Positions 229 to 8,753 of a stretch of DNA of 40,635 nt are shown here, piece after piece. Source of the DNA: a virus (taxonomy: Duplodnaviria > Heunggongvirae > Uroviricota > Caudoviricetes). The DNA lies in IMG/VR virus record IMGVR_UViG_2541047850_000015. The stretch is one strand, 5' to 3'. A model generated the notes under the pieces. The model did no database searches. It was not told the DNA's origin and saw nothing but the letters and a program-made list of their open reading frames with translations. Positions within the stretch are counted from its first letter, which is position 1; each line of letters begins with the position of its first letter. The translations under genes were made by a program, and so were the position numbers.

Positions 229-3174
229 TTAGTGCTTCCCTTCTATTAAGTCTAACCTAGCTTTTATTCTTTCTATTTCTCTGCGCTGCCATGCCGCCTC
301 GATATAGAATAAGAGATCAGGTCTGACCCCCCATCTAGATCCTGCTGGCGTTATTTCAACGCGCTCAATGATGTCTTCTATTACCATCACTGGATTATCA
401 TCCTCATCAACAATGATGCTCCCGTCATTATCAGTCAGCGGCATTTCCCTTTGGCCAGTAATGACGTCATCATATACTGCGGGATAATCGTCATAGCAAA
501 GAAAGGCATAGCGGCATGTTGTGCTTTCTTCTTCCATGAGTCCGTGAGAAATAAGAACATCACGAAGTTGCTGCGCGATTACACCATGATGTATCCTCGC
601 CCCTTCTTCCCCCTTTATAGCGACAGCGTTCAGCCATTTATAAGCGATATACCTGACGTCACCCCAGGCATCCAGCAATGCTTCGTCAGGAGAGACCGGC
701 TCTGTCTTTAATGTTCCGTCACTGGTAACCACAGGATTGGAGCCAAGATAAACTGTCGAGAACCTGTTTCCCGGACCACCAAGAGCATTTACATTATCAA
801 GATAAGGTTTAACATCTCCGTTCTCAAAAAGATGTTCGAGTGCGTTATATACCGCGCGACGTGGAGTACTGCTTCCGGAACCATGCAACGTTATCATTGC
901 ACCATCTGCTGAAGACGTTGTTTCACCGCCGCTAACGATTAATCTCTGAGCGGTAACATCATCAGACGGTACTTTCTTCGCAATAATGGCGTAATTACCC
1001 TCAAGTTTGACTTCCGCGCGAACTTGTCCTGATGTACCTGCATGGACAGTCAGTGACTGGACGGCAACATCATCTGTGAAATCAACGGGTACAGGAACCG
1101 TCCTCACGCCTGACGTCGACATAAAAGTAGGAAGCGTTCTGTTAGGAGTGGCTCCGTAGACAAAATCCCTTGAAACAAATTCTTCCTGTTTAATTTTCAC
1201 CCTGAAACAATACAAATCAGCCGGGTGACCATCGTGAACATAAGGATATTTTCTGTTGTTATCCCCTATGCTCCATGGGTTTAGAAAATCTTCCCCACCG
1301 AAAATGTAGTACAGCCAGTTGTCTTTGATACAAACTGAACCAACACCAACCGCAGAGTTAACTATTCCGCCCTGATAAATCTGATCAGTAACATTAACCC
1401 ACTCTACATTATCCAGACTCCACTCATTGACGTTAACTCTGGTCATAAATGTTCTTGGATAATTTCCTGCATAACGGTTATCAGGTTCTCCTCCTTCCCA
1501 CTCACCAAATGCGCGCTCACTGCCAAAAATAACCAGCTCATCGCCAACTTTGGCAAAAGGAAGGTTTGAGTGATGAACATTATTTGGGAAGCGAAGAGAA
1601 TTCCATGATGTACCTAAATCAGAGCTTCTGTGCAATGAACTACCGGGTTGAGTACTTAATGTCCCCCTGGTCGTCAGATACAGAATGCCATCATAATATT
1701 TTACACATGGCTCAGATGCATTCGCCTCATATTCTGCAGGTATGCGTCTGCGAACAAAGCTACCAGGAGAACCGAAAGCATCAGAGAAATAGAGTATCCC
1801 AAGCTCGCGTGGACCAATATCACCATTATGGTAGCCAACAGCAAAACTGTTATCGCTAATCGTCGCAAAACTGTGAATCTCAGTAACAGGAGTGCTTCCG
1901 TCAACAAAAGAAGGAATAGTTCCAAGACTGGTTTTTCTCCATGGTGACGAGTGAAATGATGTGCCAAAACTCCAGTATCTACCCTCGTTATTCTGATCCA
2001 CATCCTGGGTATTTTGCGTCGTAACTGTAAAGGTATTTTTATCAATAACAGTAGTCACCGTCATATTCCCGGTAACATCTGTAACACCAGAGTTTGAGAA
2101 GTTGACAAAATCACCAGCAAATAATCCGTGATCAGTAATGCGAATATAAGCGACTTGCTGATTTGCTGCTTTCGTTATACCACCATAAACGCGAAGGCTG
2201 CGACTCATTGGGCGATCCCACAACTCTGCAACCTGCAGTTTATTTCCTCTCACGGTCCGCGTCTCAATTACAGCAAAAAGGCGATTTCTGACAACCCCCA
2301 TACTCATGCAGTGATAGTTAACTGTGGGATAGTTTTCATGTAAATCTGTAAGCCATTCCGGCGTTGTCCAGGTCTTCCCGTCATCTCCTGAGCGAACCCA
2401 TGCAACATGGAGGTTATTTACACCATGGCGGTCTCCAGCCATAAAAGGCGCATAGATGACATTGTCATATACAAACGTTTTATCCTGCGTCCAGGCGTTG
2501 TACCACGGTGTATCTGTAATTTTAAATAACTCTCCCTGGATAAAATCTTCAGAAGCATAAAAAAGAGGCTGACCCGGTATTCTCTCAAATAAAAAACGAG
2601 CATTTTTAAATCGACTGACATCTGGAAGAGTTGATACTTTAAAAGTAAGCCCTCGCCCATCTATCTTTTCACCACCTGTTGCAACAGAAAGTAATTCTGA
2701 TAGAGCTGATGTATCATCATGAACACCATCACCAATAGCCCCCCAACCTCTTACATCATAACTGTCTCTCCATCTTGCTATCTGAAGTTTTGGGTATTTA
2801 TTCGCTCCATCTGGGTCTTCTAATTGCTGCCGTAGTTGATCTGGGTCATACTTCAGCACATTAGGAAAATAGAACTGCTGCGCACCATACGCATCATAAA
2901 CAGCCATAGAATGGCCTTGCACGGTAACGAATTTGGCAATCTGTCCGTTATATACAGGATATCCAGCAGCGTTAATGATGATTGGTTGAGAAACAGGAAC
3001 GTGAGAACCGTCTTCGTTCTCCACATAAGCCTGAATCTGGTTTTCAGGATTTACAGGGTCAGTATCAATTTTACCGATATAAATTTTGCCATTAGCTACG
3101 GCTTTAAAAGAACGCGCCATAGTGAAGAGTTGCGAAGGCATCGATACAATCACATTGGCTGTAATGTCTGTCAT
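229..3174 (-). CDS. Tailspike: P22 gp9-type N-terminal head-binding domain fused to an endo-N-acetylneuraminidase (endosialidase) domain with C-terminal intramolecular chaperone domain
   Basis: N-terminus [10 protein letters not shown]...[11 protein letters not shown]...VLKYDPDQ closely resembles P22 gp9 N-terminus; two Asp-box motifs ([16 protein letters not shown]) typical of sialidase beta-propellers; C-terminal about 150 aa resembles the self-cleaving chaperone domain of K1F/K5 tailspikes. Confidence 0.85.
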
Positions 3175-3296: not shown

Positions 3297-4220
3297 TTAA
3301 AGTTTTATTGAGTGGCACGCTCTATCACGTATCGCTGCGAATGAAGCTATCTCTTTAAGTGCCCAGCTTTGCTCAGCCATTAAATGGCGAAGTGCTTTTA
3401 GTTCAGCTCTTACTGCTGAAACGTCATACCCCGCTTTTGTCAGAATATTGATTAGTTTATACGCCGGACTGCATTCAACGAGTGCGCTGCGGTCAAGAGC
3501 AACAGTATCACCGCATTGCTGCCTGATAATGGCGTAAGGTGCATTTTCAGCAAACCATGAAATCGGGAAGTTAATATCCAGTTTTGGCGCTGGTAACTCT
3601 TCTTGTTTGCCAATGAACTCACCTTCAAGTGGAACTCGAGCTGCAAGTGACAGTGCTTCGGTGAACTGCTCCTCACTGATTTCTTTGTACGAACATCCAA
3701 AATGGGATTTCAGTGAGGACCACATGGTGATCATCGCCTTAGCCTGTTTTTCTTTTGGCAGAGACTGACCGCGACTCATGACGAGTTGTTTAATGGCTTC
3801 CTGCTGTTCAGTGGTGATTTTACCCGGCAACGCCTTTTTAGCTTTGCGTGGGTTAACTACATGACCTTTAGTCCAGTACTCGTATAGCACATCGTCACAC
3901 TCTTCCTGATACTGGATTACCTTGTCGCGGATTTCAGGACGGACTTTGTTTGGCTGAATGCTTGAAAGCCAAGCCGCAAACTTACGAAAGGCAAGGCATA
4001 TCATTAACTGTTTACCGCCAGCAGAAGGTATTTCGATTTCCGAAATACCTTTGACAAATCTCTGTTTTAATTTAACAAATTGAGCAGCCCAAACCATACC
4101 CATGCCTTCTACAACGGGTTTCATAGGAACGTAAGGTTCATTGTTAATGCTGACCAAAAAGAGATTTGTTCCGTGGAATGGAACGTTGATTGTATGTTCT
4201 GCAATTGCTACACTCGTCAT
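3297..4220 (-). CDS. ant: Antirepressor Ant (P22 Ant-like, AntA N-terminal domain plus KilAC-like C-terminal region)
   Basis: 307 aa, position downstream of arc in immI, size and organisation like P22 Ant (300 aa). Confidence 0.8.
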   Translation of the reverse strand: MTSVAIAEHTINVPFHGTNLFLVSINNEPYVPMKPVVEGMGMVWAAQFVKLKQRFVKGISEIEIPSAGGKQLMICLAFRKFAAWLSSIQPNKVRPEIRDKVIQYQEECDDVLYEYWTKGHVVNPRKAKKALPGKITTEQQEAIKQLVMSRGQSLPKEKQAKAMITMWSSLKSHFGCSYKEISEEQFTEALSLAARVPLEGEFIGKQEELPAPKLDINFPISWFAENAPYAIIRQQCGDTVALDRSALVECSPAYKLINILTKAGYDVSAVRAELKALRHLMAEQSWALKEIASFAAIRDRACHSIKL

Positions 4221-4283: not shown

Positions 4284-4505
4284 TCACTGTTTTTGTAAGT
4301 CACTGTAGCTATAAAGCCACTGACCACTCATTTTTGATTTGATTGACTCTACTGAATCACGGCAAGGAATGATTCCGCCTGACATCATTCTGATCTCCGT
4401 AAATTCACCACTCCTTATCGATTCAATGCCATCAATGTTAACTAAAGATTTACCTCTACCAAGTGCATTCTCATAGCCAATCTCATCAACCTCAATAAAC
4501 CTCAT
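4284..4505 (-). CDS. Hypothetical 73-aa protein inserted between arc and ant, start overlaps arc stop (ATGA)
   Basis: ORF in track; GAGGGG upstream; translational coupling to arc. No recognisable family. Confidence 0.45.
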   Translation of the reverse strand: MRFIEVDEIGYENALGRGKSLVNIDGIESIRSGEFTEIRMMSGGIIPCRDSVESIKSKMSGQWLYSYSDLQKQ

Positions 4506-4660
4506 ACCGTTATCCCCTCTCTCTTCAGGCTGTCCAACACTCGCTTGTAAATCTCAGAGTTAACAGATCGCCCGTTCTCTTCCGCCACCTTACGCACCAA
4601 ATCCAATACTTCTTTAGGCCACCGCAAATTGAACTGCGGCATTTTGCTCATTCCTTTCAT
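4502..4660 (-). CDS. arc: Arc repressor (ribbon-helix-helix)
   Basis: MKGMSKMPQFNLRWPKEVLDLVRKVAEENGRSVNSEIY... is near-identical to P22 Arc; start moved to internal ATG (about 4660) because upstream ORF-track extension would cover the operators. Confidence 0.92.
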   Translation of the reverse strand: MKGMSKMPQFNLRWPKEVLDLVRKVAEENGRSVNSEIYKRVLDSLKREGITV

Positions 4661-4674
4661 ATTTACCTCACAAT

Positions 4675-4723
4675 ATAGGTCCACCGTGGACCTATTGAGA
4701 ATATAGTAGAGTGCTTCTATCAT
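4675..4723. promoter_or_regulatory. immI control region: Mnt operator palindrome (about 4675-4695, TAGGTCCACCGTGGACCTA) and Arc operator (about 4703-4723, ATAGTAGAGTGCTTCTATCAT) with divergent Pant/Pmnt promoters
   Basis: Perfect 19-bp palindrome seen in sequence; second site matches the P22 arc operator as I remember it; located between divergent arc and mnt starts. Confidence 0.8.
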
Positions 4724-4750
4724 GTCAATACACTAACTTGGGGTGATGGC

Positions 4751-5005
4751 ATGGCTAGAAACGATCCGCACTTTAACTTCCGTATGCCTTTGGAAGTAAG
4801 AGAAAAATTGAAATTAAGAGCAGAGGCTAACGGAAGGTCAATGAACTCTGAGTTATTACAAATCGTTCAGGATGCTCTCTCAAAGCCATCACCGATTGCA
4901 GGCTATCGAGACGAAGCTGAACGCTTGGCTGATCAGCAAGCAGAGCAGTTCAAGGCCGTTGTGTTTGAGACACTTAAAAAGATTTATGGCAAGGATGATA
5001 AATAA
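4751..5005 (+). CDS. mnt: Mnt repressor
   Basis: MARNDPHFNFRMPLEVREKLKLRAEANGRSMNSELLQIVQDALSKPSP... is near-identical to P22 Mnt. Confidence 0.92.
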   Translation: MARNDPHFNFRMPLEVREKLKLRAEANGRSMNSELLQIVQDALSKPSPIAGYRDEAERLADQQAEQFKAVVFETLKKIYGKDDK

Positions 5006-5541
5006 TGCTGCACACAATTCATTTCTTATGCCCCGTTAACACTGCCACTGTTGGGCAACTTCAGAACCACTGTCTCACCGCATTATCTCAAGGCGCAACT
5101 GAATTAAATATCCATATATCAAGTCAGGGAGGGGAAACTGCCGCTGGCTTTACTGCGTATAACTTTCTTAAGTCACTCCCTGTTACCGTTAGAACTCACA
5201 ACATAAGCAATGTTGAATCCATAGCTAATATCGTTTTCCTGGCTGGCTCAGAACGTTTCGCAAACCCATTATCAAGATTCCTGTTACATCCTCTATTATG
5301 GTGCTTTGCCTCCCCAGCCGCCGACCATGCCAGATTGAGAGAGTACGGGAAATGCCTCGATAACGATCTTGATCGCTTCGTTGAGACGTTCAATATCGAC
5401 ATCGGAACCCATATTAGGTGGGCATCCCTGATAGCAGACTCGACCATTTTGGATGCTAACAAGGCTCTTGAGCATGGCATAATTAATTCCATAAAAACCG
5501 CAAGGCTGGCATCCAATCAGGCAAACTGGTGGGTTGTTTGA
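5005..5541 (+). CDS. ClpP-like serine protease-domain protein (178 aa), translationally coupled to mnt (TAATG overlap)
   Basis: Alignable by eye with ClpP: ISSQGGETAAGFTAY / VSTIC..S..A / RF..P.SR...H; candidate Ser-His-Asp triad positions retained (ESIAN, LLHPL, ADSTILDA). Not in the head module. Confidence 0.55.
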   Translation: MLHTIHFLCPVNTATVGQLQNHCLTALSQGATELNIHISSQGGETAAGFTAYNFLKSLPVTVRTHNISNVESIANIVFLAGSERFANPLSRFLLHPLLWCFASPAADHARLREYGKCLDNDLDRFVETFNIDIGTHIRWASLIADSTILDANKALEHGIINSIKTARLASNQANWWVV

Positions 5542-5566
5542 TGGGTAAATCATGAATACTCCTTAT

Positions 5567-5597
5567 AAAAAACCCGCGATTAAGCGGGTTTGATTAG
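5567..5597. terminator. Bidirectional hairpin terminator between convergent ClpP-like gene and ORF6N gene (CCCGC-GATTAA-GCGGG flanked by A/T runs)
   Basis: Hairpin with T-rich tracts on both strands in the 75-nt convergent intergenic gap. Confidence 0.5.
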
Positions 5598-5616
5598 CAA
5601 TAATCTATCCTTTTGG

Positions 5617-6474
5617 TTAAAAAAGTTTTCGAAGATCTACGCCATACACAGCAAGCCAAGCATCGCGAGGCCATGACTTAACTGAGCCAAAGCGTGGGTC
5701 GTTGACATCATGTGGGGTGACGTCATTCTCCCGGCACCACTTGCGAAGAGGCTGCCATTTGAATTTCTGCCCCAGCTTCTTTTCTACCGGGATAATGGCG
5801 GCGTAGTTCTTTCCTTCCCCTACCCGTTCAGCTAATTTGTTTTTGGCGCGGACGGCTGCTGATGCGGTAGCCATTGCTGTAGCTTCGCGTTTTGCTGCAA
5901 TCCACAACTTTTCTTTTACCGCTCTGTCGCGCTGTTGCTCAAGAAGCCGATTCTCTTTGACCTTTAGAAGTAAATCTTCCAGAGCCTGCTCGTATGTCTG
6001 CGGTAGGATGCTTTTTACCAAGGGACGGAAGTAAGCATTTTCCAACCGTTCGAAGAAAGACCATGCTTCGTCTGTATCGACAATTTTCGACATCCGCGCT
6101 GCGCCCTTCTCCGTCCACAAAACAATTGAACGAGCTTTGTTCGAAATTTGTGCGTGACTATTAGTCACTCGCAAATTCTTCAACTCTTGGCCTTTAATAG
6201 TGAAGATGTGAATTCCTTCAATGAAGCGTCCAGCATTGCGTGACAGGTTTTTCCGAATGTTAGCCTCATCCGTACCATAACCTGAAGCCAGCGTTTCAGT
6301 CGTAACAACACGTAAACCCTCCCATTCAATCACTGGAAGCGGCTGGGGATCGACATTTGGCTCATGAACTGCTAAATTTAATAAAGTCATTGGTTGGACC
6401 CTTATGACAAGTTTCAATGAAAGCCGGTAGCTCGTAACTGTCGGCTTTTCTTTTTGCACCGTCCTGTGCGTCAA
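5617..6474 (-). CDS. Antirepressor-like protein with ORF6N-type N-terminal domain
   Basis: Motif LPVIEWEGLRVVTTETLASGYGTDEANIRKNLSRNAGRFIEGIHIFTIKGQEL typical of ORF6N domain; track start is TTG, an alternative ATG lies about 6390. Confidence 0.6.
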   Translation of the reverse strand: MTHRTVQKEKPTVTSYRLSLKLVIRVQPMTLLNLAVHEPNVDPQPLPVIEWEGLRVVTTETLASGYGTDEANIRKNLSRNAGRFIEGIHIFTIKGQELKNLRVTNSHAQISNKARSIVLWTEKGAARMSKIVDTDEAWSFFERLENAYFRPLVKSILPQTYEQALEDLLLKVKENRLLEQQRDRAVKEKLWIAAKREATAMATASAAVRAKNKLAERVGEGKNYAAIIPVEKKLGQKFKWQPLRKWCRENDVTPHDVNDPRFGSVKSWPRDAWLAVYGVDLRKLF

Positions 6475-7206
6475 TCAGTGAATCCATTCCTCACCGCGAA
6501 GCATTGCCAACATTGGCTGCGCATGCTTCACGACAATATTGCTGTTATCCAGTTCCTGTACTTCACGAAGCAGGATCTTCTTGGTTTCCACAGTCATATA
6601 ACGAATGTCGTGGGCGATGTCGTATAGCATCCCTGCGTATTCTGACTTAGCCTGTTTCATTGCCGGGTAAAGTTGCTGGCTAACCCGCTGGCTCTTTTCC
6701 ATCCAGAGCTGGAGATAGCAAAGGCTGATTAACTCATCATCTGTGAACTGTTTGGCGATCGGTGAATCCGTGGCTTCACGATCCAAAATATCCAGCACCC
6801 AACGGCGGAACTCTTTGGCCTTGGGCGTAGAAGCAAACATCGCCACCAAGTGAGCGCCTCGGAGTGAGTAAACTCTGACCGATTTGTTACGTAAGCTATT
6901 GTTTATCCCGTTGACACTCATATTGAGGGTCAATGACATTGAGTCGGAAAACTCATCAGCATTACGGGCATAAATTTGGCTGATGGCATCAGTTTTTTTA
7001 TAGCCGAGAGCCTTAGCTAGTTCGGTGGAGGTAAACCAGATAGACCCGCCCTCTGTTACTGGGTTAAAGGTGAATCCTTGGAAGTTGTAATCTGATTTTG
7101 CTACAATATTCATATCGATATTTCCGTCGTAGGATTTGTTCGATACCGAAGCCTGACGGTCTAGCCACCGTTGGGCTTCAACGTTTTTAATGGATGATAA
7201 TTTCAC
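6475..7206 (-). CDS. Bro-N domain antirepressor-like protein (probable true start at ATG about 7113)
   Basis: FTSTELAKALGY...VRVYSLRGAHLVAMFASTPKAKEFRRWVLDIL matches Bro-N domain; track start is GTG at 7206 and would overlap the upstream small ORF. Confidence 0.6.
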   Translation of the reverse strand: MKLSSIKNVEAQRWLDRQASVSNKSYDGNIDMNIVAKSDYNFQGFTFNPVTEGGSIWFTSTELAKALGYKKTDAISQIYARNADEFSDSMSLTLNMSVNGINNSLRNKSVRVYSLRGAHLVAMFASTPKAKEFRRWVLDILDREATDSPIAKQFTDDELISLCYLQLWMEKSQRVSQQLYPAMKQAKSEYAGMLYDIAHDIRYMTVETKKILLREVQELDNSNIVVKHAQPMLAMLRGEEWIH

Positions 7207-7360
7207 CTTTCTTCTCCATATCCATGACCTTAGCCATAAAGAAATCGATCATCCCCTGAGTCGAGCGGTAGCTTTTAGCTGCGTTACTTTCCAAAAACTC
7301 ACGCACTTCAGCACTTGGGCGGTAGGAGATAGGCTTGATATCTTTTTTCTTCTGTTCCAT
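7187..7360 (-). CDS. Small 57-aa protein, predicted ribbon-helix-helix-like regulator (first gene of the antirepressor operon)
   Basis: Hand-translated MEQKKKDIKPISYRPSAEVREFLESNAAKSY...; GAGGTG RBS 5 nt upstream of ATG; strand-helix-helix pattern by eye. Below ORF-track size cut-off. Confidence 0.4.
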   Translation of the reverse strand: MEQKKKDIKPISYRPSAEVREFLESNAAKSYRSTQGMIDFFMAKVMDMEKKGEIIIH

Positions 7361-7457: not shown

Positions 7458-8318
7458 ATGAGTTTTGATGATTCTTTTTCTAAACGAGTTGCCATAGCGC
7501 GCAACTCCATCGGTTTGACTCAATCCGAGCTTGCTAAGAAAGTAGGCGTGGTATCCAGACAGATCGCTGCTTACGAGGGCGGGGAAGCCAAGCCAAGAGA
7601 AAAGGCACTTCAAAACCTTGCGGCTGCATTGGGAACTACCACTGAATGGCTTACGCAAGGGAAAGGAGATGGCCCTGACGTTAGCAGTGTCAAGAGAACT
7701 GTTACTGTGCGCGAGATTCCTGTGCTAACACACGTACAGGCAAGATTTGAATCGCTAGATGATTTACTAAAGACTGCTGCTATAAAGGACTTTATTCCAG
7801 CCCCTCCTGAAGCCAATGAATACTGTTTTGCCGTTGAAATACAAGGAGACTCCATGTCTTCCGGTGATGGGATTAGCTTTCCTCCTGGAACAATCGTAAC
7901 TTTCGATTCATCGCTAGAGGCTGTTTCTGGTGACTTTGTGATGTGTGTGCTGAATGATGATTCTGAGGCTACATTTAAGCAGCTTATACTGGATCAGCGC
8001 CAAATCTACCTTAAGCCACTTAACCCTTTATACCCTATGTTCCAACCTGATTTTATCGAGGTTGTTGGCGTGGCTATTCATTCTCAGTTCCGAATAAAGA
8101 GGGAAAAACTTATCTCTCCAATGCCGCATAGCGAAGTAGAGAAACTGGTTGAAGAAGCACACAAGGTTAGCCAAGATTTTTGGTCAAATGCAAAATTTGA
8201 CAAGAATACACCCTTTGACGAACGTCTTAAGCGACTAGATGAAATTGCTGAGCGCCTTGAGAAATTTGCTAACTACAGCCTTTCACAGGCCCGTTATAAA
8301 CACTCACCAGACAAGTAA
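7458..8318 (+). CDS. cI/LexA-like repressor: N-terminal HTH (XRE) plus S24 peptidase domain with about 75-aa C-terminal helical extension
   Basis: HTH segment GLTQSELAKKVGVVSRQIAAYEGG; S24 motifs GDSM and FKQL...KPLNP; AAGGTG RBS. Confidence 0.7.
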   Translation: MSFDDSFSKRVAIARNSIGLTQSELAKKVGVVSRQIAAYEGGEAKPREKALQNLAAALGTTTEWLTQGKGDGPDVSSVKRTVTVREIPVLTHVQARFESLDDLLKTAAIKDFIPAPPEANEYCFAVEIQGDSMSSGDGISFPPGTIVTFDSSLEAVSGDFVMCVLNDDSEATFKQLILDQRQIYLKPLNPLYPMFQPDFIEVVGVAIHSQFRIKREKLISPMPHSEVEKLVEEAHKVSQDFWSNAKFDKNTPFDERLKRLDEIAERLEKFANYSLSQARYKHSPDK

Positions 8319-8402: not shown

Positions 8403-8753
8403 GTGAATACTCAGTCTGTCATCATGGTTTTCCTTGGGCTGATTGTCGCAAAACTATATCCAGACTGGTGGAAAGGGGCATTAGCTACTGTCGCCATCTA
8501 TTTGCTTTTATCCATCGTTAAGCGATCACTCGCTGAGACCGTAAATCAAGCAAAACGTTTCTCATTTAAGAGTTTAATAAACTATGTTACTGGGCTTATT
8601 TTTTGCCTTTCAATTCTGATCGCTTCGGCTTTTTTGCCCGTATCAATAGCTAATTTTTTTGGCGCACCATATGAGGTAGGTTATCTATTCTCTGTTTCCT
8701 GTCTTGCCATTGCTCTTCTTTCCCTGTGGACGAGATCAAAGAATAAAAATTAG
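8403..8753 (+). CDS. Small integral membrane protein (about 4 predicted TM helices), GTG start with AAGGAGG RBS
   Basis: Four hydrophobic stretches of about 20 aa; lysogen-direction strand, convergent with gp16 homologue; position equivalent to P22 sieA. Confidence 0.5.
   Translation: MNTQSVIMVFLGLIVAKLYPDWWKGALATVAIYLLLSIVKRSLAETVNQAKRFSFKSLINYVTGLIFCLSILIASAFLPVSIANFFGAPYEVGYLFSVSCLAIALLSLWTRSKNKN

Follow-up and report, generated by a model that had tools for sequence, protein, structure and literature searches.

A prophage-borne, N-terminally truncated ClpP-family subunit encoded behind the mnt repressor gene of a P22-like Escherichia coli phage: a candidate accessory partner of the host ClpP

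The virus record IMGVR_UViG_2541047850_000015 of IMG/VR (Caudoviricetes), the whole 40,635-nucleotide stretch of which is called the window here, carries directly behind the maintenance repressor gene mnt a gene designated clp, the 178-amino-acid (aa) product of which is a true ClpP-fold protein. The gene is an optional, selectively maintained prophage cargo gene ("moron") of lysogen type and not a part of the virion. The explanation favoured for its product is a lysogen-expressed accessory ClpP subunit of the Pseudomonas plecoglossicida ClpP1 (PpClpP1) type, carried as cargo and probably pairing with the host ClpP; the chances for and against this explanation are judged to be about equal. The features of the window on which the analysis turns are as follows.

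5005..5541, plus strand: clp, a 178-aa open reading frame (ORF) encoding an N-terminally truncated ClpP-family peptidase subunit with Ser72, His95, Ser146 at the Asp position, and a C-terminal NWWV
4751..5005, plus strand: mnt, which opens the operon and encodes a maintenance repressor of 84 aa of the ribbon-helix-helix type
4991..4995, plus strand: AAGGA Shine-Dalgarno sequence of clp, located inside the mnt reading frame 9 nt ahead of the clp start codon, as read from the sequence
4695..4728, both strands: divergent overlapping promoter-like pair from a consensus scan, TTGAGA-17-TATCAT on the plus strand (Pmnt-like) and TTGACA-17-TATATT on the minus strand (Pant-like)
4962..5575, plus strand: mosaic cassette of ~610 bp, comprising the last ~14 mnt codons with the clp Shine-Dalgarno sequence, clp itself, and 22-34 bp of 3' flank
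5570..5591, both strands: GC-rich hairpin AACCCGCG...CGCGGGTT, common to clp and the convergent minus-strand antirepressor gene; probable bidirectional terminator
4502..4660, minus strand: arc, which heads the divergent Pant operon and was recognized as an ORF similar to P22 arc
3297..4220, minus strand: ant, the antirepressor gene repressed by Mnt (Pfam P22_AR_N, E-value 6.8e-40)

An earlier reading made from the letters alone (the sequence-only reading) had aligned the protein with the ClpP fold by eye, and this assignment was borne out. The only significant Pfam match of the clp product was CLP_protease (PF00574), which covered residues 24-165 with 44.4 bits against a gathering cutoff of 20.2 (E-value 2.2e-11). 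The AlphaFold2 single-chain model, obtained with 52 homologues, had a predicted local distance difference test score (pLDDT) of 94.4 and a predicted template modelling score (pTM) of 0.90. Foldseek template modelling (TM) scores were 0.80-0.85 against the ClpPs of E. coli, S. aureus, Listeria, and Mycobacterium tuberculosis. The closest solved structure was PpClpP1 (PDB 9UXT), with a TM score of 0.94, 38% identity, and a phmmer E-value of 1.6e-35.

The Ser-His-Asp triad supposed in the sequence-only reading is present in two of its three members. Ser72 and His95 align with Ser97 and His122 of E. coli ClpP and are invariant among the 52 homologues. The position of Asp171 of E. coli ClpP is taken by Ser146, and Ser, Ala, Gly, or Pro is found there across the family. 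The adjacent Asp145, probably the residue seen in the sequence-only reading, was considered as the triad aspartate and rejected, being one position off in three independent alignments and variable across the family (Asp, Asn, Ser, Ala, Thr, or Tyr). The N-terminus of the clp product aligns with Lys39/Glu40 of the E. coli precursor, and the model opens with a beta strand (residues 2-7); since the protein begins at precursor residues 39-40, the N-terminal axial loops, which gate the pore and contact the unfoldase, are missing. The pocket of E. coli ClpP that receives the IGF/LGF loops of ClpX/ClpA includes Y60, Y62, F82, I90, L114, and L189 (identities checked on the MG1655 sequence), and the corresponding residues of the clp product are N35, H37, S57, H65, N87, and K164. 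The hydrophobic docking pocket is thus lost and replaced by polar residues, which is consistent with no binding of ClpX. The clp product shares with E. coli ClpP (family S14) the barrel-subunit fold, the GG oxyanion-loop motif, and both Ser and His of the catalytic site; it differs in being only ~20% identical, in an N-terminus shorter by ~24 residues (the axial loops) than that of the mature E. coli protein, in the replacements of Asp171 by Ser and of the neighbouring Arg170 by Asp, and in its polar pocket. Two further features were observed in the prophage clade to which the clp product belongs: a conserved C-terminal N-W-W-V (residues 173-178), modelled as a beta strand, and the nearly invariant His65, which corresponds to Ile90 of E. 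coli ClpP, within what was the docking pocket.

The properties of PpClpP1 have been established by cryo-electron microscopy and biochemistry (PLoS Pathog 2026, PMC12900304). It is an N-terminally truncated ClpP with a Ser-His-Pro "triad", which forms a tetradecamer with a pore of 42.7 Å and has a peptidase activity 13-fold below that of the canonical paralogue; its Ser and His are essential for activity, and the third residue is dispensable (PMC12900304). PpClpP1 does not bind ClpX and, when alone, degrades neither casein nor ssrA-tagged green fluorescent protein (GFP-ssrA), whereas together with the canonical ClpP it forms a stable 7+7 heterocomplex that is more active than the homocomplexes and works with ClpX (PMC12900304). 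The clp product resembles PpClpP1 in several respects: both proteins are ~180 aa long, begin at the first beta strand without N-terminal axial loops, retain the Ser and His with a non-acidic residue at the third triad position (Pro in PpClpP1, Ser146 in the clp product), and have polar residues in the docking pocket. The sequence-only reading had described a standalone protease, and this element of it did not hold up. A standalone protease is unlikely because all features for the hand-over of substrates by an unfoldase, the axial loops and the docking pocket included, are missing from the clp product, and because its closest relative shows no activity towards proteins by itself.

PpClpP1 differs from the clp product in its genomic setting. 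Its clade comprises more than 200 clusters from Pseudomonas, Azotobacter, and Stutzerimonas, all of 183 aa, and is chromosomal, adjoining genes for KGG stress proteins and DUF6555, whereas clp and its relatives of 51-100% identity are prophage-borne. The possibility that PpClpP1 is itself a prophage gene was rejected on the basis of these neighbours. The prophage clade, found in Enterobacterales and Chromobacterium, is further distinguished by its own conserved C-terminal NWWV. In the Pseudomonas chromosomal loci inspected (L090-L094), genes of the PpClpP1 clade consistently had genes for small KGG-repeat stress proteins and a DUF6555 gene as neighbours; the arrangement hints at a stress-response role of the chromosomal branch, a point that is not discussed in PMC12900304.

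Accessory ClpP paralogues in other bacteria provide the concept of an atypical second ring tuning ClpXP. P. aeruginosa ClpP2 acts solely via hetero-oligomers with ClpP1, modulating ClpXP assembly (PNAS 2026, PMC13056064), and the structures of Listeria ClpP1 and Mycobacterium ClpP1P2 appear among the Foldseek matches of the clp product. These paralogues differ from the clp product in that they are host-encoded and longer, and most have Asp or Asn at the third triad position.

A different effect on the host protease was also considered, namely that the clp product is a poison or decoy subunit, which would cap the host ClpP with a ring unable to bind ClpX/ClpA, lower Clp proteolysis, and thereby stabilize some phage or host protein. 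The missing docking pocket and axial loops, the failure of PpClpP1 to bind ClpX, the lost Asp, and the low intrinsic activity of the homologue would all fit such a subunit. However, the invariance of Ser72 and His95 and the strong purifying selection described below suggest that catalysis matters, and the PpClpP1P2 heterocomplex is more, not less, active than the homocomplexes. A decoy function is regarded as rather improbable.

ClpP homologues of tailed phages are usually read and automatically annotated as prohead proteases, and clp clearly is otherwise. Reading the clp product as a head-maturation (prohead) protease is in line with some profile and annotation data: the best PHROG matches are prohead-protease families, including PHROG 94 "head maturation protease" (E-value 7e-21), the NCBIfam family Clp_rel_HeadMat was matched with an E-value of 5e-13, and a 98%-identical gene in phiv205-1 (GenBank MN340231.1, 10718-11254) is annotated as "head maturation protease". 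Phage prohead proteases (NF045542, PHROG 94/133) indeed belong to the same ClpP superfamily. However, the scores of the clp product against the specific prohead-protease profiles were far under the cutoffs (49.3 versus 120 for NF045542 and 49.4 versus 475 for NF045540). The gene is neither fused nor adjacent to scaffold or capsid genes: it lies outside the head module, on the opposite strand and at least 10 kb from the coat, scaffold, and portal genes, and the phage in the window has a P22-type coat, a P22-type portal, and a separate scaffold. Moreover, clp is optional in this phage group, being absent from P22, epsilon34, CUS-3, and nearly all sequenced relatives; in a lambdoid phage the same cassette is found between L and K, two tail genes, and some alleles are disrupted, which likewise counts against a head-protease role. 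This reading is effectively refuted, in agreement with the sequence-only reading, which had argued that the protein is not a head-maturation enzyme, and the label in phiv205-1 is almost certainly wrong.

The anatomy of the locus was found to be as the sequence-only reading had described it: a 178-aa ORF on the plus strand, overlapping mnt through TAATG and opposed to the morphogenesis genes. The mnt stop codon TAA (5003-5005) and the clp ATG (5005-5007) have one base in common (...GAT AAA TAA TG...), and the tailspike, ejection, coat, scaffold, and portal genes all lie on the minus strand. The proposed translational and operonic coupling of clp to mnt is likewise supported. The identity of the upstream gene is supported by Pfam matches of its product to Arc (E-value 3.4e-27) and Repressor_Mnt (E-value 3.8e-12) and by ~85% DNA identity to P22 mnt; the RefSeq name of the protein is "Arc family DNA-binding protein". 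The layout of the promoter-like pair upstream of mnt agrees with the annotated Pmnt, Pant, and operators of P22, and by analogy with P22 the two elements would function as Pmnt and Pant. At the other end, the hairpin at 5570-5591 folds as RNA with -18.8 kcal/mol and a z-score of -2.6 and is preceded by a run of A and followed by TTT. It was not called as a terminator by a simple terminator scan, and it is a probable bidirectional terminator. To judge from the sequence, clp has an orientation antisense to its neighbours and a terminal hairpin, and the promoter available in the window is Pmnt, not one of its own. The G+C content of clp (0.456) is unremarkable in comparison with the neighbouring genes (0.42-0.47), so that composition yields no evidence of foreign origin.

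The place of clp relative to the P22 map required a correction. The sequence-only reading had assigned it to the slot that holds sieA in P22, which is right for the broader interval between mnt and gene 16. According to the P22 annotation, the gene co-transcribed after mnt is orf59a, and sieA comes after t_mnt with a promoter of its own; since orf59a, and not sieA, is co-transcribed with mnt, clp takes the position of orf59a inside the broader slot. The cargo of P22 immI (orf59a and sieA) is thus comparable to clp in lying between mnt and an ejection-protein gene, in having the mnt orientation, and in the lysogen expression that is predicted for clp. It differs in having no sequence or fold relationship to the clp product, and the position of sieA is held in the window by a second antirepressor module and a LexA-family gene.

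The distribution of clp was determined in complete genomes, phage records, and a protein library. At ≥95% identity, the gene was found in 128 of 5426 complete E. coli genomes, always on the chromosome and nearly always beside an "Arc family" gene, and in 6 of 50,697 phage records. It was not found in P22, epsilon34, or CUS-3, all of which have mnt. A library of 1.84 billion representative proteins contained 8 clusters at an E-value of ≤1e-30 and 524 at ≤1e-10, many of them of 180-190 aa. The window itself matches a prophage located at tRNA-Arg beside yfdC in E. coli O16:H6 CU37RT-2, where IntS and acyltransferase genes are present. The cassette also occurs in the P22-like phage phiv205-1 and in lambdoid PhiR12 phages (in the tail cluster, between L and K), each time in the arrangement ant-arc / mnt-clp. 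The gene is therefore patchy among related phages and present in several phage types and sites, as expected of a moron, and the sequence-only reading of a lysogen-type accessory gene is supported.

The limits of the cassette were defined by a blastn comparison of the window with 41 loci. The left ends cluster at 4962-4967, ~40 bp inside mnt, with some matches reaching 4918/4925; the right ends are at 5575 in 27 loci and at 5563 in 7 loci, so the boundary lies inside the hairpin. With the left boundary only 40 bp upstream of the clp ATG, there is no room for a promoter, and the cassette therefore brings its own ribosome-binding site and depends on Pmnt. The Mnt proteins encoded upstream of the cassette are 36-100% identical to that of the window, and the one-base stop/start overlap is kept in every intact allele and in an 80%-identical allele. 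The ratio of nonsynonymous to synonymous substitution rates (dN/dS) was ~0.08 for clp versus the 80%-identical allele, which indicates that clp is under strong purifying selection; for more distant pairs, synonymous sites were saturated, and the proportion of nonsynonymous differences (pN) was 0.18-0.34. Disrupted copies, frameshifted or without the first ~55-60 codons, were found in IMG/VR (L045, L047, L048, and L060) and in E. coli H69 and H70. In one of them (L048), mnt and the leftover clp fragment are separated by ~1.5 kb, which suggests an insertion.

Coupling to Mnt could be explained if the clp product were a regulatory protease of immI, which would clear leaky Ant or Arc and so guard against accidental induction. 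Every intact E. coli allele (≥97% identity) and the 80%-identical allele directly follow a Mnt-like gene with ant/arc alongside, and three antirepressor-type genes lie near clp in the window. However, homologues of 51-75% identity have no Mnt, Arc, or Ant within 4 kb, and the cassette is almost unchanged where the Mnt allele in front of it shares only 36-45% identity and the neighbouring Ant is of an unrelated type. The constancy of the cassette despite such diverse Mnt and Ant alleles argues against co-adaptation to one substrate, and it is not evident how the clp product would choose a folded substrate or unfold it. A role specific to immI is disfavoured and considered highly improbable.

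The more distant homologues (51-75% identity) come from Klebsiella, Proteus, Chromobacterium, and other, mostly Enterobacterales, hosts and are also prophage-borne. They are lone genes with opposite-strand phage genes on both sides, inserted at various sites: between the lysis cassette and terminase, N and erf-ssb, Q and lysis, or tail fibre and lysis genes, and inside tail clusters. Mnt, Arc, and Ant were not found within 4 kb of them by blastp at an E-value of 1e-3. Promoter scans of these lone homologues gave results at chance level and are uninformative. In the Klebsiella-type loci with the lysis-terminase site (L071-L078, L053, and L065), same-strand cargo ORFs of 182, 170, and 232 aa were observed ~80-700 bp upstream of clp; their only matches were faint and below threshold (Abi_2, E-value 0.042; REase_II, E-value 0.045) and were not relied on. 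Variable cargo or defence genes may accumulate at this site. In other Klebsiella loci (L004-L006), the public gene call has 238 aa (5001-5717), and variants of 186-202 aa also occur; a conserved start, M-I-H-T-V-H-F, lies ~52 codons downstream, and these calls, the variants included, appear to be over-extended at the N-terminus.

A superinfection-exclusion or anti-phage effector, as proposed in the sequence-only reading, was also considered, in which the barrel would degrade proteins of an incoming phage (unfolded ejection proteins or Ant), either alone or via the host ClpP/ClpX. The lysogen-type expression expected behind mnt, in the mnt-to-gene-16 interval where P22 has sieA, agrees with exclusion, as does the occurrence of homologues at variable accessory-gene sites of many prophage types; the wide open pore of the homologue could admit unfolded polypeptides, and exclusion would fit the hetero-oligomer mechanism too. 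On the other hand, accessory-gene sites hold virulence and fitness genes as well, so that location does not discriminate, and the chromosomal sister clade adjoins KGG stress genes, not defence genes. PADLOC-DB 2.0 (5027 models) gave no family for the clp product at E-values up to 1, and a PADLOC scan that took in the proteins of its neighbours as well returned nothing for clp. Full-text literature searches found no report of such a prophage ClpP defence, the cassette contains no sensor or partner gene, and PpClpP1 alone fails even on casein. Exclusion as the specific function is thus judged to be unlikely; a defence role is compatible with the location of clp but has no positive support.

The favoured explanation, an accessory subunit pairing with the host ClpP, would operate as follows. 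Having no promoter of its own and being fused to the 3' end of mnt, clp would be expressed whenever Mnt is made, i.e., in the lysogen, if the P22 immI circuit is a valid guide. The product keeps the ClpP barrel fold and the Ser72-His95 pair but has lost the gating loops at the pore, the ClpX/ClpA pocket, and the Asp of the triad; alone it would be at most a weak open-pore peptidase to which folded proteins could not be fed. If PpClpP1 and P. aeruginosa ClpP2 are a guide, one ring formed by the phage subunit would most probably stack on one of the host ClpP, and host ClpXP/ClpAP of the lysogen would thereby be altered in assembly or activity. Three payoffs are candidates: other phages might be excluded, the prophage might be stabilized, or fitness in stress or proteostasis might be gained. 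Pairing with the host ClpP is the best-supported mechanism for the clp product; it is predicted by homology at 38% identity, and lysogen expression, oligomer formation, and any phenotype are likewise predictions. A bolder form of the proposal is that the phage gives its lysogen a foreign ClpP ring, which stacks on the host ClpP and re-programs ClpXP/ClpAP throughout the time that Mnt is produced; this is put forward tentatively and is possible but doubtful.

Several observations weigh against the accessory-subunit explanation. The transcription of clp from Pmnt is deduced from P22 immI biology. The clp product is only ~20% identical to E. coli ClpP, its proposed partner. PpClpP1 has co-evolved with its partner in one genome and is encoded on the chromosome beside stress genes and not in a prophage. 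The identity to PpClpP1 is only 38%, and the biochemistry of that protein may not transfer. The conserved C-terminal NWWV motif and His65 could mark a different partner. Finally, as some clp alleles are disrupted, the gene is dispensable and sometimes decaying.

Part of this picture was already known. The structure and biochemistry of the subfamily were reported in 2026, and the RefSeq protein for clp (WP_000903306.1) is named "ATP-dependent Clp protease proteolytic subunit". The statement of the sequence-only reading that the gene matches no described system therefore needs to be narrowed: the subfamily has been characterized by cryo-electron microscopy and biochemistry (PMC12900304), and it is the prophage role that has no description. 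Full-text literature searches found no description of the prophage-borne clade, its "moron" behaviour, or the fusion to the Mnt operon. The gene defines a prophage-borne clade of stripped-down ClpP subunits across Enterobacterales prophages, which in E. coli is tied to the Mnt operon. If the pairing with the host ClpP is true, phages would edit the central regulated protease of the host during lysogeny, with possible effects on the competition between phages, on the induction of prophages, and on stress or virulence phenotypes of extraintestinal pathogenic E. coli (ExPEC)/K1-type strains. If the rings do stack, the benefit could lie in blocking superinfecting phages for which Clp proteolysis is either necessary or harmful, or in adjusting the stability of the prophage repressor and antirepressor proteins; this would be lysogenic conversion of a new class, directed at the host degradation machinery. 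A demonstration of pairing with the host ClpP or of Ser72-dependent phage exclusion would raise the interest of the gene; should clp have no measurable effect, it would still be a correctly re-annotated accessory gene.

The part of the window corresponding to PsieA-sieA of P22 (5617..8753) is occupied by a second antirepressor module and the genes that accompany it:

5617..6474, minus strand: ORF6N-type antirepressor gene, in tandem with the next
6475..7206, minus strand: Bro-N/P22_AR_C-type antirepressor gene, in tandem with the ORF6N-type gene
7187..7360, minus strand: 57-aa ORF
7458..8318, plus strand: gene for a 286-aa LexA-family protein with HTH_3 and Peptidase_S24 domains, divergent from the antirepressor module
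8403..8753: 116-aa orphan ORF after the LexA-family gene

Together with ant, the phage in the window has three antirepressor-type genes under two different repressor systems. Two further minus-strand genes lie on the other side of mnt:

4284..4505, minus strand: 73-aa ORF between arc and ant, the start of which overlaps the arc stop; a hypothetical protein in RefSeq
229..3174, minus strand: tailspike gene, the product of which is a chimera with P22 head-binding, endosialidase (N-terminal extension, beta-propeller, beta-barrel, and tail-spike), and S74 chaperone domains

The 73-aa ORF had no match in Pfam and PADLOC scans, and its position is that of the sar antisense RNA region in P22. The endosialidase domain make-up of the tailspike indicates that it is a K1-capsule-specific, CUS-3-like tailspike.

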